Source of the DNA: Paecilomyces variotii
Taxonomy: Eukaryota
Assembly: GCA_004022145.1 (NCBI GenBank)
Contig: RCNU01000005.1
Length of the DNA stretch: 64,000 nucleotides
Strand: one strand, 5' to 3'
In this document: positions 1 to 56,231 of the stretch, in pieces
Numbering within the stretch: position 1 is the stretch's first letter
Layout of the letters: the number at the start of each line of letters is the position of its first letter
The notes under the pieces: model-generated
Told to the model about the DNA's origin: nothing
The model's database searches: none
The model's input: only the letters and a program-made list of their open reading frames with translations
Program-made: the position numbers and the translations under genes

Positions 1-2500
1 TAATAGAAAAAGACTAATTTTTTAAAAGCCTATTAATAAAGAACTATAAGAGATTAAAATAAGAATAAAAAAGAATAATCTTCTAGAGAAGATTATAGGA
101 AAAAAAGAAAGATATTAAATTAAAAATTTAGATAAAAGCTTATTAATAAATCTAATATTAGATAAAGAAAAGGAAAATATAGAGAAGGAAAAAAAAGGGA
201 AAAAAAAAACTAAGAGTCCTAAAAAACTAAAAAGAGAAAAAAAGCTTAAGATTTAAGATAAAAAAAAATAGCTAAAAAAAGGATATAAATATAAGATTAG
301 TATATCTATATTAATAAAAAAGGCTATTATTAACCTAAAAAATAAAAAAGTATTAAAATTTTTAAAGAAAGAAAAGATTAAACCTATTGCTATACTAAAT
401 TTATATTAAAAAAATATAAAATATAATAAGACTAAGAAGTATAAAAGATAATATCTTTAAAAAAAGATTAAAAATACTTATAGATAGTAATAATAACCTT
501 AAATACTAGAATATTAGCATAAACTACTAGAAATAGTTTTAAGGGAGATAGAGACTTAATATTAACTTTAAGAATTATTACTGCCTAGATAAGGAAGAAA
601 CTAAAATATAGTTCTAACTAAGTAGACTAAATATAAATATTAAGAAGATTAAAGAAGTCTTATAATAGGTTAATTTAGGGAAAATTAAATTAATCTATAA
701 GCTATATATATAACTATTAGCTAATATAATTAATATAAAGGAGGATATATTTATAAAAGAAGCTAAAGGAGTATTAAAAATAATTAAAAATATAAAGCTA
801 GCAGCAGTAAAATAATAGAAGAAGAGATTATTTAAAATAATAATTTATCCTTATAAAAGTTTATTTAAAGAAATTAAATAATTTATAAATAAAATTTCTA
901 AAAGTAAATAGATAATAGAACCTTCTAATAGAGCCTTAAAAATTAATATAAAGCCCTTCTTTTCTATAATAAACTTAAAAAACCCCTTTATTAAAAAAGA
1001 AACTAGATACTTAAAAAATATATAAAATACTAAAACTATATAATTTAAAAATAATTTAAAGGCTAAGCAGATATTAAGTATATCTAGCAACAGCTAGGTT
1101 AAAAAAAGAATAAAAAATCTTATTTTAGAAAATCTTAAAAATATAAAAGATAGAGATAATATAAAAATTAAAAAAACCTTATTTAAAGACCTTCTCCCTA
1201 AGAAATTCCTAATATTAAGGATAATTTAACTGTTTAGAGATCTTAAATTAATTAATATAAATATTTTTAATAATATACCTAGCAGCTTATATTATAAGGC
1301 TTAAGATAATATATATAGGGCTAAAGAATATCTTAAATCTAAGTATAGGGATAAAAAATATTTTAATTTAAATAAAAAAGACTTTACCCTAAATAAAATA
1401 TAAAACTAATATATTTAATTAAGTATTATAATAAAAGAGGATTTTAATTATTAGGAAATAAATAAAGTTTTTTAAATTATACTCTTTAAAAAGAAATTAG
1501 CAGAAAAAATATTATAATATACTATTATAAAAATAAAAGCAGCCCTTTATTATAAAAAGAAGAATAAAAAATTAATAGGGCTTAAAAATTTATTTAAGAA
1601 TATTCTTTAGAAGGTTATTATATAAGATATTTAGATTTATTTAATTTAGTTAATACTATATAGTTATAGTAAATATAGGCTACAGGTTTAATATCTTAGG
1701 GGATATAAGCTAAGAGTATTAAATATAGAGACTATAATCCCTAAGAAAAAAATAGGCTAGAGCTTTATAACTCTAGGGACTAAACTAATTATTAAAGATA
1801 AGTCTAAGAAAATTATAAGCTTAAGAGATATTATATTTAGGCAGGGAGAAGTAACTTTTATTAGTAATCTATATTAGCTAATATTAGAGAATTAAAGAAT
1901 AGATCTTAATAATATTTATTATTTTAATTATAGAGAATAAGATAAGATAAGATTTAATTAAAGAGAATCTAGGCTTTTTAATATTTAAATAAATAGAGTT
2001 ATAGCTATAAATAAAGTAATATTTAATTAATTAAATTAGGATTATTTAAAAGTTAAAATAGAGTTATACTTTATATTAAAGCAAGATATATTATTAGTTT
2101 AAGATTATTTATAGAAGAAAGGAACTCAGCTTTATAAATTAGGGGTTTTAAAATATATATAATATTAAAAACTAGAATATTCCTATTTTAAAAATAATTT
2201 ATAATATTAAAAAGAGGAGATAATATAGACTATAATAATTAAAAAAGATAAATAAGGGTATCTATTCTTAGAGAAGGGGAAGCTATATAATAAAAAGAAT
2301 TAGTATAAAGAATATAATTAGTTAAGAGATTATATATTTTTATTTAAAATCTTTAAAAAGTCTATAAGTAAAGCAGGAGAAAGTAAGAGTAATAAAGAGA
2401 TAATACCTTTTAGTTATTTAAAATAAAATAATTAGCTATTTTTATAATATACTAATAATTATAATATAAGAAGTTTAGAAAGTAATAAGAGTAATAGCAA
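1..2500 (+). mobile_element. RIP-degraded repeat relic, family not identified
   Basis: Very AT-rich, TpA-saturated, CpA/TpG/CpG nearly absent. Purine-rich plus strand suggests a former plus-strand ORF; skew reverses near 2500. No motif confidently recovered; boundaries approximate. Confidence 0.5.
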
Positions 2501-5500
2501 TAATTTATTAATATTAATAATAAATAGGGATTTATAATTCTAAAAAGCTCTTATATTTATTTTATTAAAATATTTCTCAAGATAGTATTTTATAATAGTT
2601 TTTATAGATTCTTAAGGGTAGTATTAGTATTATAATATAATAGCCTAACTATTAATAGAATTTATAATTAAATAGAATTTTATAATAGTTATATTTCTGC
2701 CTAATTCTTTTACCTTTAGTATTATTAAAAAAAAATATAATAAAATAAGGATTAGTAATTAGTTTTAGCCTATGCTATAAATTATAGATACTAGTATTAT
2801 AAGATAATAATAATTTAATAGATTTAATTAATATTACTAGTAATAGCTTAGTTATAATTATTAAATCTATTAGTCTTAAATCTCTAGAATAATTATTATT
2901 CTCTATAACTAGATTTTCTAGCTTCTATATATTTGCTATTTTTTTATTATTATTATCTTATCTACTTATTATTAGTATTCTAATAATAATCTCTAGTAAT
3001 ATATTTACTGCAAATATTAGTAGTATAAATATTAGAAGTTCTTTATTTAGCTTATTAATAGATCTATCTAGAATATTTTAATCTTTTATTAGTATTTAAC
3101 TTTTAGTAATTATTATATTATATATAATATTACTATTTATTTTATTAATTAGTTATAATTATAATATAAGATAATTCTTTTATAGCTATTCTTATATTTA
3201 GTATAAGGTAATTTCTTAATATAATTTCTGCTATTCTGCTAGTATTATTATATTAAGTTTATTATAAGTTAGTAGCAGTAATTCTTCTATATTAATAATA
3301 GCATTTACTTCTAGTAAGGTTATAATAATGCTATATAATTTATATAATTCTATTTATTATTTTAGGGTTAACTAAGATTATAAGACTATATTATTAAGTA
3401 TATATACTAGGATTAATTAGTTTTTATTAATAAGGTATTATAAAATATTGCTATTATAGTTAGCTAAATAATATATTTTAAAGGGATAAGCTATAAGGAT
3501 TTTATATAGTCTAAATTAATATTTTTTAAATTTTTAATATGTTTTATTATAAATAAATACCTATTTATTAAGTTTAAAAGAAGACTTAATAATATTATTA
3601 TAGTAAACTTATAATACTTATATTACCTTTTTTAATAACTTCTTATTAACTATAAGCTAAGTATATTATAATATAGTAATTTATTTTTTATACACCTTAA
3701 TTATATTTATAATCTCTAATAAGTATAGTAGGTTATTATTAAAGAGTAGTATTAAATAGTATTTATATAAGAGATAAAAGAAATTATATCTTATAGTCTA
3801 GTATAATTTAATATATATTATAAAGATTACTTATAGAAGATATTTATCCTATAAATAAATAGGCTTATTAATAAGCATTTTAGTTAGTATATTATCTAAT
3901 AGACTATTATAATTCTTAACCTTATTATTAGTTCTTAGGTAATATAGTATAATATACTAATAATATATACTAATAATCTTTAAGTAATAAATAATTATTT
4001 AGAAAAGGAAGTTAGAGCTATTATTAGATAATAATTCCTATAAAGCTCTATAATTAATAAAAATATAATTATAGATAAACTTTATAATTATTTTATCCTT
4101 TATATTTAGTAATATTTCTATAACTAGCTATTCTATTATATATTTAATTATAGTAATAATTTATTTATTACTGTTTAGTATAGTTAGTAGAATATTAATA
4201 AGGTTAATTGCCTAATAGTTAAATAGTTAAATATTGTAACTAATAAATATTTATAGTATCTCGCGTTTAAGGCCTGGTTATACTTATTATACTACTTAAT
4301 ATTTAAGGCAGTATTATATAAAATATTATATATCCTTTTATATTATTAGCTATTATATATAGAGTTATATTACCTTAAATAGGGCTAGATATCTGAGATA
4401 TCTATAGTCTATATATATTTCTTCTAGGAAATTATTATAAAAAAATAGATAAAGATAGAGAATATTATTATTACTATTATAATATTATAAGAATCCTTTT
4501 ATATTAAATATAAACTTATCCTTTTTTTTATTAATTATAGATTATAAGTATTATAGTAATATTATCTTATTACTAAATATAGTAACTATTATATTATATT
4601 ATTTTATCTTATCTTATTTAATTATAAGGGAGTTAATAGTATATTATATTGCTTCTTTCTCTTCTAATATAAAGTTAAGATATTGTAATATTATATTAGA
4701 GATAATAGCTTAGCTATTTAGGCAATATTTAATATTAAGATTATAATCTTAGAAATCTGCTAACTATTATATTAATTGTTTTAATAGGGTTTTTATTATT
4801 TATATATATTTAAGGCTTTTATAGTTAGTAAAGACTATAATTTTATATCTATTATTAAGATATATATATTAAATTATAAGAGTATATTTAATTACTAGTA
4901 GTTCTTTCTTATATATTAAGTAATTCTTTTTATAAATTATTAATTTGCGATCTTTAAAAATAATTAGATATAGGCCTTTTATAATTATATCTTTTTATAA
5001 TAAGCTATAACTAATTGCTTAATTGCTAGTATTTATTTTAAGAGTAAATAATTTAGAGATATTTAGCAATTAAAGAATAGATTTATTAATAATACTCTTT
5101 TTTAATTATTTAAATATATATTAATATTTAGCTGTCTATTTAATTTTATAATACTTTTATTTATATAATTATATATTACCTTCTTTTAAAAGGTCTAATA
5201 AGGGTATAGTAATATTAGTAAAGTTCTTAATATAATATTAATAATACTATACTAATCTTAAAAACTAATAAATCTTATAGATATTAATAAATATTAGCTA
5301 TTTCTTAATAATCTTTATCTTTAACTATATTAGCTAAATTATCCCTCCGCCTATATTATATCTATAAAATTCTAATTATAGCTTTATAAAAATATATTTA
5401 AATAGCTTTATAAATAATTAATTATTAGATAAAACTTATAAAACTATAGATAAGTAATAAATATACTCCTCTAATATTAGAGAGAAAACTATAATATTAT

Positions 5501-8500
5501 TAAGATAAATAATTATAAATTTATTAAGATATAGATATAAAATCTTATTTATTAAGGCTTAAAAAATAGCTAAAGCATTAGCTAATCTAAATAGTATTAT
5601 AATAAATTTAAATTTTTCTTAATATATATTAAATACTATCTTCAGAATATCTTCTTCTTTAATCTAGATTTAATAGTAGCTTTATATAAGGTCTAGTTTA
5701 TTAAGAATTTCTGTATTATAGAGTTAATTAAAATATTTTTAGATTTTTAGCAGTAAATATTTATTATATTTAATAACTGTATTAAAGGCTTAATAATTAA
5801 TATATATTCTCTATCTTCTACCTGGTTTCTTTATAAATAGGGCTAGGAAATTCTAAGGGCTTACTAATTTATAGACAATTCCTTTAATATAAAGGTTATT
5901 AATTTATTACACTTTCTTATCCTTATATAAAGGTAATAATAAGTATATATTAATATTAATTAGTCGGGCATCTTATATATTAATTTTATAATTATTACTT
6001 AGCTATAATAGTAAAATTATATTAAGTAGCTTTTCTTAGAAATAATATTTAAATTATTATAATATAATTATAATTTCTAATAATATATTCTTCTATTTTA
6101 TTATAGATAAAGTATTTATTATATTATTAAGTTATTATATAGTATAAAGTTGCAATTTAATATCTTTTTTAAAAAAGTATTTAGCTTTATTATAAGAGAT
6201 AAGGGTATTATTAATATCTTTAACTAAATCGCAAATTATTATATATTATAAGATAGAGCTTAAGTAATATATTAAACTATTATAATTATTAATTATAATT
6301 TATATTATTTTTTAATTAATCTTTAAGTTTATAGACTAAAGCTATATTATACCTAAAATAATATTAAAATTATTAAGGTTAACTACTTATATAAATAGTT
6401 CTATATAATATATATCTAACTATAAGAGTATTATTGCAGTACTATAAATAGTTATAGCTAAATTATTTATAAATTATATTTTTAATTACTTAATTATATT
6501 AATAGAAATATTAGCTATCTTATAAAATTTAACTGAGGTATATATTATATTAGCGCCTAAGTTAATTAAATAATATATAGGATATTAGGTTTTAAATAAA
6601 AACTTACCCCTTATAATCTTTATAATCTTTCTTAAGAATAAGTAGAGATATTTATCTAAACAGCTTTATTATTTATTAATTTTATAGGCTTTAATTGCTA
6701 TAATATATTATCTAAGATCTTCTATATAGAATTAATCTTATTTAAATAGTTATAAGATAGCTATAATATATTAGCAGTTTTTATCTAATATATTAAAGGA
6801 AATGCAATAATAAGGCAGTATTAAATTAAAAAATCTAGTCCTGCTATTAGAGTAACTATAGGATTAATATTAACTATTCCTTAAGCTATTATAATTATAA
6901 TAATATAAGTTTAAAAAATAAGATATTAACTTTACTATATAAGATAATTATTATCTTAATTAATAATTTTAACTAGAGGAATATTCTCTTTTATTATAAT
7001 TATAAGTTTAGTATTCTATATAATTATATTAGAAATAAAGGTAATTCTTCTAATAATAGTTAGTTTATTCTAGGGTATTTTTTTATAAAGTATTCCCTAG
7101 TAATATTATTTTAAAGGAGTAAGATAAGTGCTATAACTATATTTATTATTATAAGTAATCTAGTATTAGCTTAACTATTAATAACTCTTATTTATTGCTT
7201 ATTATATATAATTATTAAGATTATTATTCTAAGTATTAGTAGGTATTATATATATATATAGCTATATATTGCTAATTAAATTAGTTAGCTATTATAATAT
7301 AGTTTATATAATTAAGATTATTATAATTTAGATTTTCTTCTATATAATTATAAATATAGATTTTTAATCCTTAAATAAAGTATTTCTTAAGTTTATAATC
7401 TAATAAAAAAGAGTTAAATTATTATTATAATATAAGCAATTTAATAATATATTCTATAATAAAATATATTTATATTAATTAATAATATTTATTACAGTTA
7501 TATACTTTTTAATTAATATTTTTATATAATACTAAGATTTACTATAACTAATTATTTAAGATATTAAACTTTATAGCCCTTCCTATCTTAATATTATTAG
7601 ATTAAGTTTTTTATATTAATCTTATATTACCTTTAAGAAATCTAGTATAATATTATATAATCTCTTATTAATTCTTAAACTAGTCTTTAGTATTATATTA
7701 TTAAATATAATTATAAATTTTAAACTTCTAGACTTCTAGAAGTTCTATATTATATTTACCCTTATATAAGAAAGAGGTTTTAGGTTTAAGTCTAGGTCTG
7801 TTATTAAGGCCTATTGCTTATATTACCTATGCTTAAGCAATATTAATAATATTATTAGCAACTTAGGCTAAGAGACTTAATAAGCTAAAGTCTAGTTATA
7901 ATAAGTTTAGTATTATAATATTTGCAGCTTATTCTAGAGCTAGAGGAGATTATCTTAAATTAGGTGTTTTAATACCTAATATTAATTAGTTATTTTTATT
8001 TAAATCTATATAGCTAATATAATTAGCTAAGTCTTCTGCTATAGTTATTATAATTATTTTAAGGTCTTAATTATTAAAATAATTACTAAATATCTATATT
8101 AATTCTTCTTATAATAAGAGTATATTTATATCTTATTATTTACCCTTTATAGCTAATATATTATTATAAATTAGACTTTAATATAATTCTTTATCTTTAC
8201 CCCTTTTTTTAAATATAGCAGTAAGGTTAAGTTTAAAAATATTCTATATTTATTTAATTTAGTATAAATAAGAAGTTATAAGATAAAGTTTAAGTTTATT
8301 ATTATTTAGATTTAGGTTTCCTTAATATTATATATATTATTATATTATTATTATTATAGCTAACTGCTATATTATTAAATAGGTAATATCTTTTATACTT
8401 AATATTATATTTTAGGCTTCTTTATATATAGTAATATAATAATTATTATAATTATTAATATTATAATATAATAGCATTAGCCTATATAGGCTATAGCCCT
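2500..8500 (-). mobile_element. RIP-inactivated Ty3/Gypsy LTR retrotransposon relic
   Basis: Minus-strand motifs in Gypsy order, differing from consensus mainly by G>A/C>T. Protease INLGA (=IDSGA, ~6552-6566). RT ILFRLANALAIF (=MPFGLANAPATF, ~5562-5600) and IYLNNIIVFS (=YLDD, ~5496-5507). RNase H KELLVIKYTL (~4880-4910) and VFTNYKSL (=VFTDHKSL, ~4812-4835). Integrase YYPRTNNKVKN (=YHPRTNGKVE, ~3915-3945). LTRs not resolved; ends approximate. Confidence 0.9.
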
Positions 8501-8614
8501 CTAGGCCTATGTAATCCCCTTATTATTGCCTAATCTAAATATTTAGATATGCTACTAGATATTGTTTAGAAGAAGAAAGTTAATTACTAAGAGATATCTA
8601 TACCTAAGGCTATA

Positions 8615-9051
8615 ACATAATTCTCTACTAACTAGATTACCCGCCTAAGCGGATTAATACTATATAATATATAGAATAACCTCTTTTTAAACTGAGATTT
8701 CTCAACAACTATATATCTAGCATATATAATACTTAATATATAGCTTTCTATAATAGTAAACTTTTATATACTAAAATTTTAAGCTCTAAAAATTACTTAT
8801 TATTTAGGTAATATAAATTATTATTATAATTTTTATAATTATATTTTACCTAAGATATCTAAAGAATAGCAAGACTTAAGCAGATAAAATTAGACATATA
8901 TAATCTTAACAATATATATTTTACATATATCCGTTCTAATAACCTTTAGATACTTAGTTATTAAGATATTTTAGTTTAAAAAAGGGCTATTTTGTATATA
9001 ATACGGCACTAATCCGCTTAGGCGGGTAATCCGGTCGGCAGGGAATTACGT
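8615..9051. mobile_element. Fot1/Pogo-type (Tc1-mariner) MITE, 437 bp
   Basis: ~50-bp TIRs. Right TIR read inward is ACGTAATTCCCTGCCGACCGGATTACCCGCCTAAGCGGATTAGTGCCGTAT; the left TIR is the same with only transitions. ACGT terminus and TA on both flanks (8613-8614, 9052-9053); no ORF inside. Confidence 0.85.
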
Positions 9052-10290
9052 TATAGTAGAGAATGACTAAGCTAGATGACATAAGAAAAGACCACACATA
9101 CGCCGTTGAGGCTTATTTAGTTTACTAAGCACAATGACAGTCAGCAGAGAAAGCAGGCAGTACTGCTCGTTAACCAGCAAACCATTGTTTATTACAAATT
9201 TCCGATGAAAATTTCCTCGTAAAGGTTACTTAGGTTTAGGCGTTATATATGAAGAGAATTATGTGTAGCACCGTCCAACAACGGGTGTGGATAATTACAC
9301 GATCGAGATATATCTCCTCGCACCTAATTCTTTGAGACTTCCATCCTTTGTTTTCTATGCCTTCAATATTATCACTATACAAGTCATATATGTAACAGGT
9401 GAAGAAATAACAATTATTGGAGGCGTCTTGCCCTCTCCCAGTTCATAGGATTGGACATGTCGGGCCTCAATTTGAAGAGCCTAAGAAGCTTGTCCCGTTC
9501 GTTTATAAGCCACAAAAGTCACATAAAATGCCAAATCCAAAAGAGGAGTCATATGAGAATCTATCTATATTCTACCCGCAATTATACCAGCAAGCAATAT
9601 AACACACAATTTAACTAAATCGAAACGAATACATCCAGAGTACACATACCACCTCGGCGAGAGCAGAGAGGTATGAAAGTCAGATTCATGATCATATAGT
9701 AGCCAGTGCAGCATCTTCGGATATGGGGAGCGCGAGATTGGCTCAAGGAGGAATACCAGTACAGTACAGTAGCTAGGTGTAGTTGGCAGCTTGTGAGCAT
9801 AGCGAAGTCCGTGTTGTTGCGAGCGGGGTCTTTCTAGCTTAATTCAAAAAGCTCATTTGGCACTCAGCTACCACTATGATCCCCTTATAATGAGAATATA
9901 GCACGGAAATGTTCAGCATCAATGTTAAAAGTCACAATGTGCGCTTTCTACTGGCTCTTAGTTGAGGTTCTGTAAGTTTTGTATCAGGAGGCGATGGAAA
10001 GATTGACTAGCTTGTGGCCAAGGGATTGGTCGTTAGTGCGATATCGAGACCTGCAACAGTCTGTACTGTCTCTAGTTTCTCTGAATGCACGGAAACAGAA
10101 TTAGTGATGATCATAGTTACGACCCATCTCAACCAAGTACGCGACAAGTATCGAGGTTTGTGAATTATATCGACATATGATAACAAAATATCCGTACAGG
10201 ACAGAGTTAGCTTAAACATGCCTTTCAAATGTTATATGACCGGTCTATATACAACATGAAGTTTACATTTGGAAGGAAATTCTATTATCC

Positions 10291-44521: not shown

Positions 44522-46524
44522 ATGAAAGGTAGAATAACGAGCCGCTGGACTTCCGGCGCAGAGTGGTCGTCCTACCTGAATTCAACGTCCAACGTCTCGA
44601 TCTTCGCAGGCCCAGTGCGACGAGACACGCCCATCAGACCTTTTTCGATTCTCTTGAGCAGGGGCTTTTCTAGTACTCCCAGTAAGAAGCAGACCTTGTG
44701 AGAAGCTACTTGAAGATCTGTTATCTTTTTGGTCCTCTTCTGACGTTGCTAGTAGTAATCTCTCGGCGCCAATCAGTTTGGGTAAGTCTTTGATATAATT
44801 GTTAGCGTAATAGCTTCTGTAGCTGCCCGTCTTGACCGGAGGCGACAAACATCAGTGAGATCCGTGCTGATTGCCCTGCAGGTCGGATCTCCCAGGCTGA
44901 TGGGTTCTGTCAACCATTGAATAGAGTGTCTGTCAGGAATGGCAAATATCACGCTCAGTGTCCCTCAGTCAGGTATTTCTCTTGTTCAAAGGTTCCTATG
45001 AGAGAGAATCGGTCCAAGTCAACAATGCCTCTCACGAACGGGAGTCAATCCCACCGGGCTTTCATTGCTCTAGGGAGCAACGTTGGTGATCGTATTGAAA
45101 CGATTGAAAAGGCACTTCTCGAACTGGACCGGGCCGGTATCAGAGTAAAAAGAACCAGTTCTCTGTTCGAGACCGCACCTATGTATGTCCTTGACCAGGA
45201 GCCATTTATTAATGGTGTTTGCGAGGTGCGTCGAGGAACTCTACTTTCTCGCATTCATTGCTCATTTAGCATTCTCAGGTTGAAACAACCATGGAGCCAA
45301 TCGAACTTTTGGATACGCTCCAAGCCATTGAGACGGGCCTGGGGCGCTACAAGACGATTGACAAGGGGCCACGGTCTATCGATCTCGATATTCTGCTGTA
45401 TGGCAATGACATCGTATCCCATCCGCGTCTCAAGATCCCCCACGCCTTGATGCTGGAGCGGGAGTTCGTCCTTAGACCACTCTGCCAGTACGGCTGCACT
45501 CTTCTGGAACCCTTTGGGCACGAAGATTGACATATATCCCAGGTTGATTCCTCATGAGCGACCTCCTCTCCCAGGGGAGAATTTAACTTATCTCTCCTAC
45601 CTGAACTCTCTACCTCCGTCAGAGACGCCTCCCGCTCTCACGTCGCCAATCTCCTCCTCGTTCCCATCTTTACATCCTTCGGATCCGAAGCGCCGCACTC
45701 ATGTTATGGCTATTCTGAACATGACTCCCGATTCCTTCTCCGACGGTGGATTGCATTCGCCCGATGACTTCTCTGCTTTAACTGCAACAGTGCGCAGATT
45801 CATCGCAGCTGGAGCTACCATGATTGACATTGGGGGTGAGAGCACTCGCCCTGGCTCTGCTCCTGTGGGTGAGGAAGAAGAACTAGCCCGCGTCATTCCC
45901 GCTATTCGTCACATCCGTACCTCTATCCCTGAAGCCCGCAACGTTGCTATTAGTATCGACACATACCGTGCTCGTGTGGCTGCCGAGGCTTGCGCCGCCG
46001 GTGCAGATATCATCAACGATATCTCCGCGGGAACTCTAGATCCTGAGATGCTACCTACAATGGCCAAGACTGGCAAGTCAGTTATCCTGATGCACATGCG
46101 TGGCGATCCCTCGACCATGACCAAACTGATAGACTATCCTGGGGGCATCATCCAAGGCGTAGGATCGGAACTTCTGGAGCGTGTCCGTGCCGCTGAAAAC
46201 GCAGGCGTGCGTCGTTGGCGCATTATTCTCGACCCAGGGGTCGGATTTGCGAAGAACCAATCCCAGAACCTCACGTTGCTCCGAGACATGCAACAACTGA
46301 GAACCAACGTCGAAGGACTGGAATGCTTTCCTTGGCTCGTAGGTACGAGTCGGAAGGGATTCATTGGGCGGATCACCGGTGTGGAAAAGGCCAGCGACCG
46401 AGGATGGGGCACAGCTGCCGCAGTCACTGCCAGCGTCGCAAGCGGCGCAGATATTGCGCGAGTACATGATGTCCCAGAGATGTGCCAGGTGGTGAAAATG
46501 GCTGATGCCATTTACAGAGTTTAG
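44522..46524 (+). CDS. fol1: Folate synthesis protein, HPPK-DHPS bifunctional
   Basis: HPPK: IALGSNVGDR, GPRSIDLDIL, IPH. DHPS: ILNMTPDSFSDGG, DIGGESTRPG, INDISAG, LMHMRG, DPGVGF, SRKGF, RVHDV. The 5' exon from 44522 with a presequence is inferred. Confidence 0.9.
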
Positions 46525-47281: not shown

Positions 47282-48099
47282 CTATAACTCCCACCTTCTG
47301 GCCGGGGCGCTCAGAAGAAGTCGAGCAAAAAGCTCAATGTTTGCGTTATCCTTCCGTTCGAAGCTATAGAGCTTTGACTGTCCGATAATGACTTCATCGT
47401 CCTTTATGCGAGCGTAAAATACTCGCGCGTGTTGAGGGCCGAGAAACGACAACATTAATATAGGGAATGTCTTCTCACGTTCAAAGACTAATTTGCCGTC
47501 GTATGTTTCATCCCATAGCTCGAATGCGGACTCCCATTCCTGAGGAGGAATTTTTGGCTGGTCTGCTCTGTTTCGCATAGCGCAAACCAGAGGTATCAGT
47601 TCCTCGTAGAAGATAGAATTATCTTGACCAACGCGGTCTACAGTTGTTGTCATAGTAATATGCGGCCGAGTAGGGTATCCATTCTCTTTCGGAGCCTCCA
47701 GGATTGTGTGGGTTCTCCAAAACCAAACATTTCCACTGTCTAGGCCTCCCCCCCACAGAAACGGGTCCGGATCTCTGTAAGTTCAGTCAGTGGTCATATA
47801 GCTTTTTCATTTTTGTAGACTGTACCAGCTTACTTTATGTCACTCAGATTCATGCTGAAATAGCTGTACTTGCTCCTGACCGGATTGAGAGCAAAAGAGG
47901 TTATGTATTGTAAGACTTCTGCACCACGAGCTTCCGAAGACCAGGCAAAGTTGTGATGTCCTTTAGGTCTCTCAGCTTCAGGCCTTTCAGAAGGCTCCAG
48001 GTACTTCGGAAATGGTTCTATTTTTTCTCGTAGGGGGTCTGTCCTGAACATGTTATGTCGGGGCATTGAGAATAAGAAAGGTGGATCGTCGACAGTCAT
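47282..48099 (-). CDS. Uncharacterised fungal protein (2 exons; N-terminus uncertain)
   Basis: Two ORFs join in frame via a GTAAGC..CTGAC..CAG intron (~47777-47833). C-terminal FPILMLSFLGPQHARVFYA..QSKLYSF resembles an unannotated Eurotiomycete family. The frame stays open to ~48222 without an ATG. Confidence 0.65.
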
Positions 48100-48730
48100 G
48101 GAAACACCAGTGTGAGGGTCTATCTCGAGAGGATGGACCCTGATATTGAGCCGCGTGAGAATGTCATCGCCAACAATTCCTCTTCCTTCGAGATACCGAG
48201 TTTCTCTGGATGAGCCAGAGTTTTATATAGGACATTTAGAACGTCGCGCGCCTCTTTCCTCGGCGCTGTGTTCGGCATTCTGAAGATGAGAAGCGGGGGT
48301 GAATTTGAATAGGCAAACTTGGAAGTGCAGAGCTGAAGATAATGAAAAGCCTCAAGCTCTGTTTATCTGGCTACGTGCACCGACCAAGGCCTATCATGAA
48401 AGACGACGGCGATAGCCAACAGACCCTAGAGGACAGCTATAGCCTACAGGGGACCGAGGAAGCAATAAGAATGATAGCATAAAGAGAAGTTCTTAGATGG
48501 TGGTGCGAAAGATCGAGTGAGTCGAAAAAGAGAAGTGAGTTGAAAAAAGAGAAGTGAGATGTAACACTGAGTCATTGTGGTATTCACCCAAGGCAGCAGG
48601 GCGGTAAGTTGTCCCAGGTCACTATGATACGAGAAGACGAGATAGTTCCGGATTGTCGCTATGTACAGTACCATAGGGTCGCGGCGGGTGCCTGTTGATT
48701 GTCGAATCACGTGCAGGGTCCAGGCAACTA

Positions 48731-49175
48731 GCGAGCTCACGTAAGCAAGACGTACCGACGAGATCTACATATCAATTTTCGAATACAACAGAACTTAGAA
48801 AAGACATCTCAATGGAAATATGGTAATGAACGCTAGCTATGCAAAAACAAACAGATTTGGCCTTTACCGACTTTGCAATCGCTCCGAGATAACTGAGGTT
48901 GCGAAGATTATTATTGCCATAATGCTTTATGTCTAGAGGTCTCAAGTGCACTCAAGCACTTGTGACTTTCTAGTCTGTAAAGTATTATGGCAATAATAAT
49001 CTTCGCAACCTCGGTCATCTCAGCGCGATTGCCAAGTTGGTATGGGCCGAATCTGTTCATCTTTGCGTGGCTGGCATTCGTTACTATACCTCTATCAAGA
49101 TATCTTTTCCAAGTCCTATTGTACTCGAAAATTGAGACGTAGATCTCGTCTCCGTCTTGCGAGACGAGAGCTCGC
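48731..49175. repeat. Long inverted repeat: arms 48731-48949 and 48956-49175, 6-nt loop
   Basis: Arms align at roughly 80% by hand, including a perfect 29-bp block GAGGTTGCGAAGATTATTATTGCCATAAT. Differences are mostly transitions. Confidence 0.95.
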
Positions 49176-49948
49176 CTTATTCCATTAGATAGATTTCCTC
49201 ACAAGGTAGCATGGAGTGGTACTTACCAGCGCCTGGGCACCGCGTCAGGATACTCCTTAATGGAGGCGATGACCTGAGCGGTTTCCTGCTTCTCCACTTG
49301 GGGAGTATGCCTGTCCCTCGGGCCTACCTTGCATTCCATAAATGCGACGATCTGGTTGCCTATGACCAGTTGATACTGGCCATCAGTGACGGCCGTAAAG
49401 GCTCGTCTCTGTCCCCCGTGGACCCCAAAGTTGGCCTCCAGAGAGATTCCCTGGGCGTTCCATTGGCCGCTGAGCGGCGCAGCCAACATTGCCAAGGCTT
49501 GCAGGAACGAAACCAAGGAGGTGTTTACGGCCGCCTCCGACCTTCTGGTCAACTTTGACCTCCCTCTATAAACTGCAGCAATTGCTTGCTGCTGTTGTGC
49601 CAATAGCACCTTAAACAAAGTATTCAAGGTCCATTGGGCAAAATGCCCGGGGCCCAAGATACCTGCTCCAACTCTCTGGGCATATTCTTGAAAATTTTGG
49701 TTGGTAACCAAGAGACCAGCTTGCTGGTAAGAAGGGGCAAGCCCAAAAATGGCCGGAGTGAATATTTTTCTTGTCCTCGGAAAAATTGTACGAAATAGGA
49801 GAAATTGCTCCTCTGTAATATCGGAGCCTGACCGCATATTCGTACATTGGATTAGAGACATGCCGGCCACATTGTACTGGCGGGCTTCAGCTTCCCAGGC
49901 CGCCACAGTCGCCGGCAGACGAAGAGAGGAGTTGGTGCTTGAGGCCAT
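48911..49948 (-). CDS. Uncharacterised protein with PD-(D/E)xK-like motif; exons 49948-49227 and 49175-48911
   Basis: TDG..(x12)..MECK...QETAQ. Intron 49226-49176 (GTAAGT..CTAAT..AAG). Exon 2 reads WRALVSQDGDEIYVSIFEY..RFGPY and runs through the hairpin loop to TAA at 48913-48911. Confidence 0.8.
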
Positions 49949-50099
49949 GGTGGATAGTGAGGAGGGCGAGAATGAGCTTGTGGAAAGAGGGTGGGAGCTG
50001 GACTGATACGTGTTTAGGGAAACAGTAGTTGTTTATATTTAGGAGTCCTTTGTGTTATAGACTAAGACCTGCTAGACACGACTGATACACAACAGGAAT

Positions 50100-51550
50100 A
50101 GGCGCCTCTTCGTCATTCCTGCTGGAGGGGATTGTCCCAATTATGTTCTCAATGCTTGTCCTTATTATTATCCGAGATATAATTAGGTTATGCTCTTTCT
50201 ATCTTTTTGCTTCCTCTAAAACAAATGAATATCGCAATGTAATTTGCAAGGATATCAGTACCGAGGTATCTCTTCTTTCCAAACATATCCAGCCAGCGCC
50301 TCTAGGGCCTGATAACTATCCAAACAAAAGAAACCAAATAGAACGGGAGCAGTTAACCGGCATGGGATCAGAAATAGTACAATGGCAATCAAAAGTTTAA
50401 AAGAAAAAAGGCCTCGGGGATTAAGATTCCACCACAACGGCCAATGCGTAATATCCTCCACCGTGTACTTATACAAACGCTAGATCACCGCGCAGACTCC
50501 CCATAATAGTCCAATAAATACTGTTGGTGTCCTTAACACTAATGAGCCGTTATTCCTCATTCTCAGCCAATCTCTATTATTGGTCACTATAGTTGTTAGG
50601 ATTATTATTATGTCTATATCCGCCCGTCCGCATTAAACTTATATGTTATACTTAACTCTTTATTGAATCCGATTCCCCTATATACTTAATTTCTATTATA
50701 TCTACCCTCTTTGGTGCATCCATAGAGGCCGTCCAAGTATATATAATAGGGTATACCTTATACCACCAGCACTGGCCATTTAGCTATTTGCACTTATTAA
50801 TTAAATTGTAATAGTCCTCTGAACCCGTTAGAGAGTCTCCGGACTCCTGACAATGGTTACTTACCAGGCTACCTTAGCCCAGACTGCCCTGGCTCCAGAA
50901 GCGAGGAAGAGGTGTAATAATTTCACTGTACTTTTTGGCGAAGTTGGGTTGGCTACCTTATTTCTGCGCGTTTAATATCTGGGATAGTGGCCATACCTAG
51001 GCGGAATACCAAATATTATTGGTATAGATTAAACCCAATATTACCATTAAGATAGGCCGTGGAGGTAACTATCGGATCTCATCCATATATATAGAGATTA
51101 ATCCAGCTATCTCCACATTACTTAATATCCTCCGTACTTTCTTAAGCGCTTATAAACCCAACAATATCTTACTATTTAAATAAGCTAAAAATATTGGGCT
51201 ATTAGAGTTTCTACTCTTTACATAACTATAAATAAATACTTTAAGTAATTTACTTTTGGAAAGAATAGAGCTGCTTGGATTAATAGGCCTCAGACTAAAA
51301 TATTTTGGGTAATTATATACTCTTAAAAAGTAACTATACCTGCTTTGGGGCGGTTTAGGAAAGAATGGTATTATATTCTTAATACTAATATTATTACTCT
51401 AAAATTGTAAGGAACTCCTAGGCGCCAGCCAGTTCCTAGAAACCCTTCAGCCAAAAAGACTACACAAAGTAATAGCCGCTGGGCTATTACGGGCTGGCAC
51501 CCCTTATAAGCTTTAACTGAACCCCTCGAGACCGCGCTTCTTACAAAAGA
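50100..51550. pseudogene. Partially RIP-mutated relic, identity unknown
   Basis: Local TpA enrichment and stop-rich, coding-like sequence; no long ORF. Confidence 0.4.
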
Positions 51551-54947: not shown

Positions 54948-56231
54948 GGAGGTTCTGGTTCATTGGGGAGTTGACTCTTGCATAATTCCATATTTTTGGA
55001 TCGCGCGGTTTTAAGTGGATATTGCATTATTTTCGGTGCATAGTATTGTAGTATATATATATATTTCTGAGTGTCTTCCTATATTTAATAATCTCTCTAT
55101 ATGTAAATGGCTTAACGAAAAAGGAAAAGCATATGTCCATGAATAATAATTGTGACACCCGAAAAGATTAATAATTCAATTGGCATCATGCTATTATTCA
55201 TCAAGGACACTTTTCTGAGAAAGAAAATCCATTCGTAGCGCCATGACGGATAATAGGGATCTAAGACCACAAAAGCAAGAAAAGAATGGAAGAAAAGCAC
55301 TCAATACGATAAGTAACAGGATCTCGATTGCTTGAAGAGCTAACTAGAGGATACCGAAATCGATCAACTATTTATGTATATCCTTGGACTTCGTCCTAAT
55401 TAAACACTGTCTGGAGCACTACTACCTCAGCCACTGTTTCTGTGTATTTCTTACTTCCGGCGTGTCTGCTTTGATTCTATATAGGTGGAAATAAGTGGCG
55501 TCATATTGTTTATTCTATACCCTTTATATAGATAGGGTAATAGTGGCGTTTTGCAGCTCGTCTCTAATAAAGCAGTTGGGTGCTGATAGAATGGAAGCAA
55601 TAGATATATCATCAATCGAGAGATATTCACTTATTCAGGGGCATTATTATTGACGTCGAGGATGATACAACGTAAGAGTGGTTCACAGTTCAGGATTGCA
55701 GAGCCAGAATGATACACTATATGATTGGCTTTATTCCAGAAGAGAAGCACAAATAAGAGAAATAATGAGATACTTATTGTATTTTGCATTTCGTACTAAG
55801 TACATGACCACCTCGTGCGTGTAGTGTTTTCGAGAAAGAAAATGAGCAATTTAACACTTCAAGGGCTGCTTCGTCGGGGAGAAATTGGAAACAAATTTGT
55901 GAGACAAGCATTGATGTGATTTTTTATCGTTATTTTTTTTTTTTTTTTTTGGTACGGGAATTGAACGAAGGCGAGGGGATGAAATGTGGAAGAATGGTAT
56001 GAAGATGAACTTTTATGTAGGCAATTCAGTGTTCAGACTTCAGAGGGGCATTTATGGCTCGAGTGCTGGTGGTAGAAATGAAGAGGAAACAATTCGGAAA
56101 GATAATCCGGAGTCACAAAAAGAAATCAATATTCGATTCCACCGTTGAAAACATGAAGAATGTGTCAAGCGGACCAGAATAGCAACGTCATATCCGGTCA
56201 GTTATGGAGCTGCCGCGTTCCATGATCACTA

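Follow-up and report, generated by a model that had tools for sequence, protein, structure and literature searches.

We analyzed a 64,000-nt stretch of the Paecilomyces variotii genome (contig RCNU01000005.1 of assembly GCA_004022145.1), referred to here as the window, in which a two-exon gene for a nuclease-like protein lies next to an inverted copy of its own last exon. The gene is on the minus strand. Exon 1 (49227–49948) starts with an ATG at 49948 and comprises 240 codons and, at its end, the first two bases of a tryptophan codon. The intron (49176–49226, minus strand) is 51 nt in length, is in frame, and has a GTAAGT donor, a CTAAT branch site, and an AAG acceptor; a homologous Paecilomyces protein, P0005, has the same junction between ...PRPW and RALVSQDG as is created at this splice point. 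Exon 2 starts at 49175 and is followed, after a 6-nt spacer, by its inverted copy. The spliced coding sequence is 987 nt in length (328 amino acids) and terminates at a TAA (48913–48911) that lies within that copy. The anatomy of the locus is real and unusual. The account best supported by our analysis is mutational: the last exon was probably duplicated as a fold-back and then subjected to decay resembling repeat-induced point mutation (RIP), with the hairpin being a by-product rather than an evolved silencing device. A preliminary description of the locus had proposed a gene that is silenced by its own hairpin.

Gene structure and inverted repeat

The last exon and its copy form the arms of a 445-bp palindrome. 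The right arm (48956–49175, minus strand) is the genuine last exon, as indicated by its homology with P0005 and its match to a hidden Markov model (HMM) of the protein family. The left arm (48731–48949, sense on the plus strand) is, by alignment, a decayed inverted copy of this exon. The arms are adjacent and nearly equal in length (219 nt for the left and 220 nt for the right), with the fold-back centered on the 6-nt spacer (48950–48955, ACTCAA on the plus strand). Gapped local alignment of 48731–48949 with 49175–48956 yields 217 aligned columns with 39 mismatches (82.0% identity) and 4 small indels, 5 nt in all. A repeat finder reports an ungapped core of 173 nt (48757–48929 and 48978–49150) that is 82% complementary. 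The ~220-bp inverted copy and 6-nt loop noted in the preliminary description are thus present as described. The outer end of the repeat (49175/49176) coincides exactly with the 3' splice site. The left arm has a TAG at 48796–48798 where the coding arm reads TGG, a change also recognized in the preliminary description, and indels close to its outer end disrupt the reading frame.

The inverted repeat is real and not due to chance. Minus-strand RNA of the repeat region, whose folding had been suggested as a check, is predicted to form one long stem with a free energy of -294.3 kcal/mol, as compared with -137.1 +/- 6.3 kcal/mol for shuffled sequences (z = -25), and none of 100 shuffles reached the stability of the native RNA. 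Inverted pairs of at least 60 nt within 3 kb of each other occur just twice in the entire 64-kb window, one of these being the exon 2 arm pair, and blastn within the window found no further copy beyond the self match and the arm pair.

The RNA and population data used here are Logan contigs rather than reads, from which rare spliced forms are dropped and in which depth is a poor measure of expression. A 2960-nt DNA contig of run X1 spans 47357–50316 with 0 differences from the window. An assembly artefact was rejected on this basis, as the contig carries the same structure. In addition, 14 of the 24 runs listed contain 0.98–1.00 of the sampled words of the stretch 48400–50100, although 9 of these 14 (X6–X14) are flagged as possible sources of this DNA and are therefore not independent.

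Two small palindromes are found within the repeat. The sequence GTGCAC is located at the center (48946–48951), and exon 2 starts with its own small palindrome (49144–49169), which has a 9-bp stem and an 8-nt loop on the sense strand.

As anticipated in the preliminary description, the spliced open reading frame (ORF) runs through the loop to a stop at 48911. The cause is evident from comparison with the family. P0005 (295 amino acids) ends in ...IIIAIMLSV and P0013 (303 amino acids) in ...ALLHL; both hold the exon 2 peptide, and both stop two to three residues past the conserved ...AIML or ...ALL. The left arm aligns by tblastn (48760–48933) with residues 238–295 of P0005, that is, to its very last residue, and the next codon (48934–48936) is TAG. 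On this alignment, the left copy keeps the native stop of the family. In the coding arm, a net insertion of 1 nt near 48975 lies immediately ahead of the stop, and the equivalent TAG (48970–48972) is out of frame. Because the insertion shifts the frame, the native stop of the coding arm is bypassed, and translation would continue through a frameshifted tail of 21 codons, RLESHKCLSALETSRHKALWQ, which extends on the minus strand from near 48976 in the right arm to 48911, with 48911–48955 belonging to the loop and left arm. This 21-residue tail has no counterpart in the family. Since a late frameshift removed the native stop, read-through into the loop is secondary, and the crossing of the ORF into its own inverted copy is therefore not a design feature. 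The original fold-back, as judged from these alignments, would have copied the exon, its stop, and ~15 nt of trailer.

The preliminary description further held that the mRNA must contain parts of both arms. This would require both splicing of the intron and use of the downstream stop. The intron contains two in-frame stops (TAA at 49225–49223 and TGA at 49201–49199), and the contigs that cover it are unspliced, with the ORF ending at the TAA at 49225–49223. The unspliced reading yields a product that ends at Trp241, which by the structural model described below would lack the fourth core strand and everything downstream of it.

Divergence of the two arms

Transitions account for 28 of the 39 mismatches between the arms and transversions for the remaining 11. 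The transversions cluster near both arm ends. In the core (48783–48924), a tally of the per-site list gives 26 transitions among 29 mismatches, a count that replaces the 28 of 32 previously estimated by hand. When polarized as GC to AT, the transitions number 17 in the left arm and 11 in the right, such that both copies have been mutated. The sequence contexts of these transitions, read from the unmutated arm, are CpA/TpG in 14 cases, CpG in 8, CpT in 4, and CpC in 2. Relative to the inferred ancestor, 21 of 54 CpA or CpG sites have changed, as compared with 7 of 39 CpC or CpT sites (odds ratio 2.9, Fisher p=0.039). The GC content of the arms is 0.40 and 0.45, as compared with 0.53 for exon 1.

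RIP has been demonstrated in P. variotii by crosses, which are reported to have yielded exclusively C>T or G>A mutations with a bias for CpA and with mutation of 18–20% of the sites in two hph copies (PMC6300479). For closely positioned repeats in Neurospora, homology of 155 bp is reported to be enough to trigger RIP, and 220 bp to result in substantial RIP (PMC4858203); inverted orientation is likewise described as permissive there. With lengths of 219 and 220 nt and adjacent positions, the arms are therefore long and close enough for recognition by RIP according to the Neurospora values. The window also contains an AT-rich isochore (1–9000) with a GC content of 15–19% (0.168 overall), which ends abruptly at ~9 kb and is of the RIP type, with RIP indices of 1.30 for TpA/ApT and 0.25 for (CpA+TpG)/(ApC+GpT). 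Recognition by RIP ceases once copies have diverged to ~80–85% identity, the present level of the arms.

The pairing of the stem gives a different view of the same mismatches. In the mRNA orientation, the 217 columns consist of 178 Watson-Crick pairs, 16 G:U pairs, and 23 mismatches, and thus the ~16 G:U pairs of the preliminary description are accounted for. The ratio of G:U to A:C is 16:12 when the stem is read as mRNA and the reverse, 12:16, when it is read as antisense (binomial p=0.57). This even split is what strand-blind mutation such as RIP predicts, as opposed to selection for pairing, and no compensatory double changes occur across the 217 stem columns. The stem is not visibly maintained by selection.

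Evidence on coding constraint is mixed. Against the family HMM, the peptide of the right arm reaches 75.5 bits, whereas that of the left copy, matched codon by codon, reaches 43.0 bits; the two have 20 differences across the 65 codons compared. This gap of 32 bits suggests that the coding arm has been constrained since the duplication. In conflict with this comparison, GC-polarized changes number 3 synonymous and 7 non-synonymous in the coding arm, and 8 and 7, respectively, in the copy, and thus reveal no purifying selection. The polarization is unreliable where the family consensus disagrees with it, and the two results together allow no firm conclusion about constraint.

Protein family, transcripts, and surroundings

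The gene had been called an orphan, but the protein belongs to a sizable family. A word-indexed protein search returned 12 proteins, 7 labeled as Paecilomyces and 5 unnamed. Five Paecilomyces proteins with comparable coverage (P0003–P0007) are 52–59% identical to exon 1, and no annotated protein in this search exceeded 59%, meaning that no annotated ortholog was found. A phmmer search with full-length P0005 returned 621 cluster representatives at E<=1e-3, 221 at <=1e-10, and 22 at <=1e-30. Many of these matches are ~300 amino acids in length and align from approximately residue 10 to residue 293 of the 295 in P0005. The nearest clusters in the ESM Atlas are designated "hypothetical protein" and are mostly from Ascomycota, to which the family appears, by its matches, to be restricted. 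Searches of metagenome contigs yielded 103 pattern matches with a 13-sequence alignment of the family and 229 with exon 1 (P0001), with 0 relatives in either case.

Recognizable relationships at the sequence level are sparse. No Pfam family was found for P0001, P0002, or P0005, and just 2 single-member chance matches were found among 56 members. A profile search of the PDB by sequence gave nothing below E=0.25. Within the 56-sequence alignment, E129, D176, G177, K194, and G271 are invariant, and E192, Q208, E209, and P272 are at least 90% conserved. An AlphaFold2 model of P0005 made with this alignment has a predicted local distance difference test (pLDDT) score of 94.0 and a predicted template modeling (pTM) score of 0.92. 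In the model, E129 starts a helix (residues 129–146), D176 lies between two strands (170–174 and 177–181), and K194 ends a strand (187–194). The catalytic signature of an acidic residue on the first helix, an aspartate on strand 2, and (D/E)xK on strand 3 is therefore present. The window protein carries SEAAVN, TDG, and ECK. The TDG...ECK...QE motif and the likeness to PD-(D/E)xK nucleases that the preliminary description had seen are thereby upheld by the predicted fold and the conservation of the motif. Exon 1 accounts for the N-terminal helices as well as the E...TDG...ECK...QE core motif. From residue 228 onward, the model of P0005 has strands at 228–235, 238–245, and 265–274 and helices at 248–254 and 278–294, all encoded by exon 2. 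By homology, the right arm thus encodes the fourth core strand, two more strands, and the C-terminal helix.

Structural searches point in the same direction. Foldseek gave no match at E<=0.001; the best had E = 1.4e-3, and the best matches were mitoribosome chains and the nuclease DrdV. With VIA-align in its wide mode, which works independently of Foldseek, the closest matches are two chains of the human mitoribosome, 3j7y_5 (Z 11.8, rmsd 4.3, 214 aligned) and 7a5f_s3 (Z 11.7, rmsd 4.3, 217 aligned), followed by DrdV (7lo5_A; Z 9.8, rmsd 3.1, 140 aligned) and BpuSI (3s1s_A; Z 9.5, rmsd 3.2, 150 aligned). Lower-ranking matches include many restriction enzymes, NucC, Cas4, HsdR, and similar proteins, and 41 of the best 50 matches of this search are, by title, named nucleases or restriction enzymes. 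From their chain lengths we take 3j7y_5 and 7a5f_s3 to be mL37 and mL65, a designation that was not given by the structure search. The pair mL37/mL65 of animal mitoribosomes is described as "repurposed endonucleases", such that some of the top fold matches would be "repurposed" proteins devoid of catalysis (PMC8998825). The model, with its alpha-beta-beta-beta-alpha-beta core, and the alignment support the window protein being PD-(D/E)xK nuclease-like by fold and motif, with the activity itself a prediction.

Several other features of the family are apparent. The P. variotii paralogue P0009 contains a segment of ~45 residues, GLPTCQWNGDRIPL.ADFG...SFIAVTDGQLQ, three times in tandem, and local duplications within the family are therefore not unique to the window gene. 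As far as the intron, P0004, P0005, and P0006 are 93% alike, but their annotated C-termini are of three different kinds. Short contigs of DNA run X1 and of X15 and X17 match 49161–49206 and 49039–49075 with 3 differences each and then diverge. Paralogues of the gene are thus present elsewhere in the same organism.

The nuclease-like gene is transcribed. RNA contigs of run X16 cover it at 48970–49493 (depth 8.4) and 49502–50095 (depth 10.7). The former bridges the 51-nt intron in unspliced form, as do metatranscriptome contigs of X15 (49139–49799) and X17 (49068–49799). No spliced joint at 49176–49226 was found in any run, all three RNA-library contigs that cover the intron being unspliced. A 151-nt contig of X15 (depth 3.9) bridges the loop (48898–49048) and represents either RNA or carried-over DNA; no X16 RNA contig bridges the loop. 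Gaps between contigs occur at 48641–48969 in X16 and at 48719–49067 in X17, and X15 has just the 151-nt piece in 48719–49138. None of these gaps can be taken to indicate a poly(A) site, dicing, or poor reverse transcription of the stem. Similarly, the end of the X16 contig at 48970 matches the position of the native stop, yet is not evidence for a 3' end there.

Two RNA-library runs from a single study contain a second form of the locus, from which a 1051-bp segment (48719–49769) comprising both arms, the intron, and the greater part of exon 1 is missing. In this form, 48718 is joined to 49770, at a depth of 14.4 in X15 and 34.1 in X17. The joint has 30 letters on its far side and no microhomology. 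The contig that bears it has 7–10 differences from the window in the neighboring gene and keeps the intron of that gene. We tentatively consider the joined form to be a genomic deletion haplotype, which is probable given these features, with the side length being minimal and the observation coming from one study. The gene thus appears to be dispensable in at least one other form.

The same runs differ from the window farther downstream. Within 47964–48226, a T of the window corresponds to a C of the X15 and X17 contigs at eight sites, always on the same strand, and 5 of these 8 sites read TpA in the window. This interval also has a single G/A difference and, at 48182, an insertion of 1 nt. Ordinary strain difference is the likelier explanation, although RIP-like damage to the flank of the hairpin haplotype could also account for these sites. 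RNA editing was set aside as undecidable for these T>C differences, which are at full depth and travel with the inserted base in the same contig.

The neighboring gene downstream (47341–48640, minus strand) is represented by a 1244-nt contig of X16. Its 59-nt intron (47775–47833) is spliced in X16 (CT..AC joint). The contig depth for this gene is 275.6, as compared with 8–11 for the nuclease-like gene. No Pfam family was found for its product, and its Atlas matches are solely to mostly-Ascomycota "hypothetical protein" clusters. The left arm is located 91–309 bp upstream of the 5' end of the RNA contig of this neighbor and hence is likely in its promoter. Farther away, an HPPK-DHPS gene was identified by protein search at 44.8–46.5 kb; its DHPS segment (45700–46521) is 100% identical to a P. 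variotii-labeled protein, with the next best being from Rasamsonia (86%). From their translations we take the ORF at 40.6–41.7 kb to be ArfGAP-like, that at 42.6–43.4 kb to be nitronate-monooxygenase-like, and that at 53.6–54.9 kb to be permease-like. The second inverted pair of the window sits at the edge of the AT-rich isochore; it is 110 nt in length (8610–8719 and 8947–9056) and 78% complementary. An intergenic dip in GC content, to 0.364, occurs at 55001–56000.

Origin of the fold-back and comparison with known systems

We propose the following course of events. A single inverted duplication would have copied the last exon, its stop, and ~15 nt of trailer in a tail-to-tail arrangement with a 6-nt spacer, for which the anatomy suggests a replication template switch. 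RIP would then have recognized the two ~220-bp arms and mutated both, mostly by C>T and G>A changes at CpA and CpG. With ordinary substitutions and small indels added, the arms would have fallen to their present ~82% likeness. The left copy, being unconstrained, would have decayed more and gained its stop and frameshifts. The coding arm would have remained nearer to the family consensus, but the net 1-nt insertion would have destroyed its native stop, leaving the ORF to run 21 codons over the loop to a chance TAA. The hairpin itself probably has no function.

The entire gene may instead be a decaying pseudogene, with its intact-looking ORF a remnant and the hairpin the initiating lesion. We consider this possible though unlikely. 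It would explain the retention of the intron in contigs of all three RNA-library runs, the loss of the native stop, and the GC-polarized counts of synonymous and non-synonymous changes (3 and 7 for the coding arm, 8 and 7 for the copy), and it fits with the existence of the deletion form and with the lack of an annotated ortholog in the word-indexed search. However, exon 1 maintains an open frame of 240 codons with all of the nearly invariant motif residues, and the coding arm is stop-free and scores 32 bits above the copy on the family HMM. The gene is also transcribed, as seen in the X16 contigs at 48970–49493 and 49502–50095, and splicing may still occur, as rare spliced forms are dropped from such contigs.

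A number of observations weigh against RIP as the driver of the divergence or against a simple template switch. Transversions make up 28% of the mismatches (11 of 39), and together with the 4 indels they represent divergence for which RIP alone cannot account. CpA and CpG sites are enriched only modestly (p=0.04), and this figure presupposes that changes ran from GC to AT, a direction not fixed by a DNA outgroup and at odds with the family consensus at some sites, such as codon 49060, where the ATG (Met) of the coding arm is the family state. The share of CpG among the arm transitions is high, exceeding that in the CpA-dominated pattern described for P. variotii. Differences between P. variotii strains are also rich in transitions (16 of 18 listed), so that an excess of transitions is not by itself diagnostic of RIP. 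Lastly, the outer boundary of the repeat is a splice acceptor, which a random template switch would not predict and which stands as an unexplained coincidence.

Several of these observations, namely the 11 transversions and 4 indels, the transition-rich strain differences, and the sites at odds with the GC to AT direction, would also fit an old fold-back duplication that diverged by ordinary neutral mutation, including deamination of CpG, and without RIP. In addition, 8 to 12 of the 28 transitions are at CpG and not at the CpA preferred by P. variotii RIP. We nonetheless regard this explanation as doubtful. The arms differ by 18% over 217 columns, as compared with ~0.5–0.8% between the flank haplotypes (7–10 differences in 1281 nt), and they lie in a lineage with proven RIP and in the same window as a RIP isochore. 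Both arms have lost GC relative to exon 1, and the CpA/CpG enrichment, however modest, is in the direction of RIP. Taken together, these data suggest that RIP was the main contributor to the divergence of the arms, although not the sole one.

Fold-back duplication followed by RIP-like decay provides no role for the hairpin, and we considered two ways in which it might have one. An accidental hairpin may have been co-opted. If the 3' end of the mRNA were within or beyond the left arm, an imperfect double-stranded RNA of ~200 bp could be processed by Dicer into small interfering RNAs (siRNAs) that damp the gene itself in cis and perhaps also act in trans on its paralogues. Were this so, expression would be conditional on the state of RNA interference (RNAi), and the locus would represent a natural hairpin-regulated coding gene in a filamentous ascomycete. 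We consider this highly improbable. Judged by titles and the openings of abstracts, none of the papers listed that mention P. variotii together with Argonaute and Dicer concerns RNAi of the fungus itself.

The second possibility, favored in the preliminary description, is that a toxic nuclease gene is kept silent by siRNAs that Dicer produces from its own hairpin mRNA and fires when RNAi is suppressed, for instance by a mycovirus, thereby acting as a guard. Consistent with this, the stem over both arms is predicted to be very stable, the spliced ORF enters the left arm, the 151-nt X15 contig (depth 3.9) spans the loop (48898–49048), and the nuclease-type motif and predicted fold are intact; hairpin RNA is also reported to silence genes efficiently in filamentous ascomycetes (PMC4515635). 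Against this, the pairing bears no mark of selection (16 G:U versus 12 A:C), and the read-through is due to the loss of the native stop by frameshift. Furthermore, the intron-covering contigs are unspliced in all 3 RNA-library runs, with no spliced joint, the loop-bridging contig is shallow and could be DNA carry-over, and a form without the whole segment exists. These indirect tests point away from the guard model, self-silencing is unsupported, and we consider the model even less credible than co-option. The notion that the 445-bp palindrome is a fold-back or miniature inverted-repeat transposable element (MITE) at the 3' end of the gene was rejected as scarcely credible, since despite the size, long terminal inverted arms, and tiny loop resembling those of fold-back elements, its right arm is the conserved C-terminal coding exon of the family, its flanks (…CAACTA on one side and CTTATT… on the other) have no target-site duplication, and blastn found no second copy within the window.

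The locus offers a clean, natural case in which a gene's terminal exon has been duplicated as a fold-back, in a lineage for which RIP is experimentally proven. Its arms record the aftermath, in that both copies are mutated, the free copy has acquired a stop and frameshifts, and the coding copy has lost its native stop. It thus illustrates how a gene can be damaged by a short local duplication in a RIP-active genome, and it serves as a warning that "hairpin genes" deduced from raw sequence may be mutational accidents. If the hairpin did feed RNAi, it would constitute a rare natural case of self-targeting regulation of a fungal coding gene, although no finding here points to this. What still merits attention is the nuclease-fold family of Ascomycota itself, a by-product of this analysis that consists of 621 cluster representatives, is unnamed and has no Pfam model, and has a confidently predicted restriction-endonuclease fold with an intact predicted catalytic motif.

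The predicted structure of this family most resembles the PD-(D/E)xK domains of the type IIL/IIG enzymes DrdV and BpuSI and the mitoribosomal pair mL37/mL65, with which it shares the fold; its E..D..ExK residues are conserved. Unlike DrdV, BpuSI, and mL37/mL65, the window family consists of stand-alone proteins of ~300 amino acids with an extra N-terminal helical region, and neither Pfam nor the PDB yielded a match to it by sequence. The repeat has the layout of the hairpin-RNA transgenes with which RNAi is triggered in filamentous ascomycetes, in which a promoter is followed by a sense arm, a short spacer, and the antisense arm. It differs from these in that its arms are just 82% alike, its stem is a predicted one, and it is natural and probably accidental. 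As in fold-back duplications attributed to template switching, the inverted copy adjoins its source, and short palindromes are found at the center and near the outer boundary; the placement of that boundary at a splice acceptor is not explained by that model. A further parallel is with RIP of short, closely spaced repeats in Neurospora testers and with RIP in P. variotii. As in these cases, adjacent copies of ~220 bp have both been mutated, apparently mainly by C>T and G>A changes with a modest enrichment at CpA (and CpG), in a genome with RIP-type AT isochores. The arms differ from RIP products in P. variotii and Neurospora in having 28% transversions, indels, and a share of CpG as large as that of CpA, and the repeat described here is neither a transgene nor a transposon but a natural fold-back of a gene's own exon.

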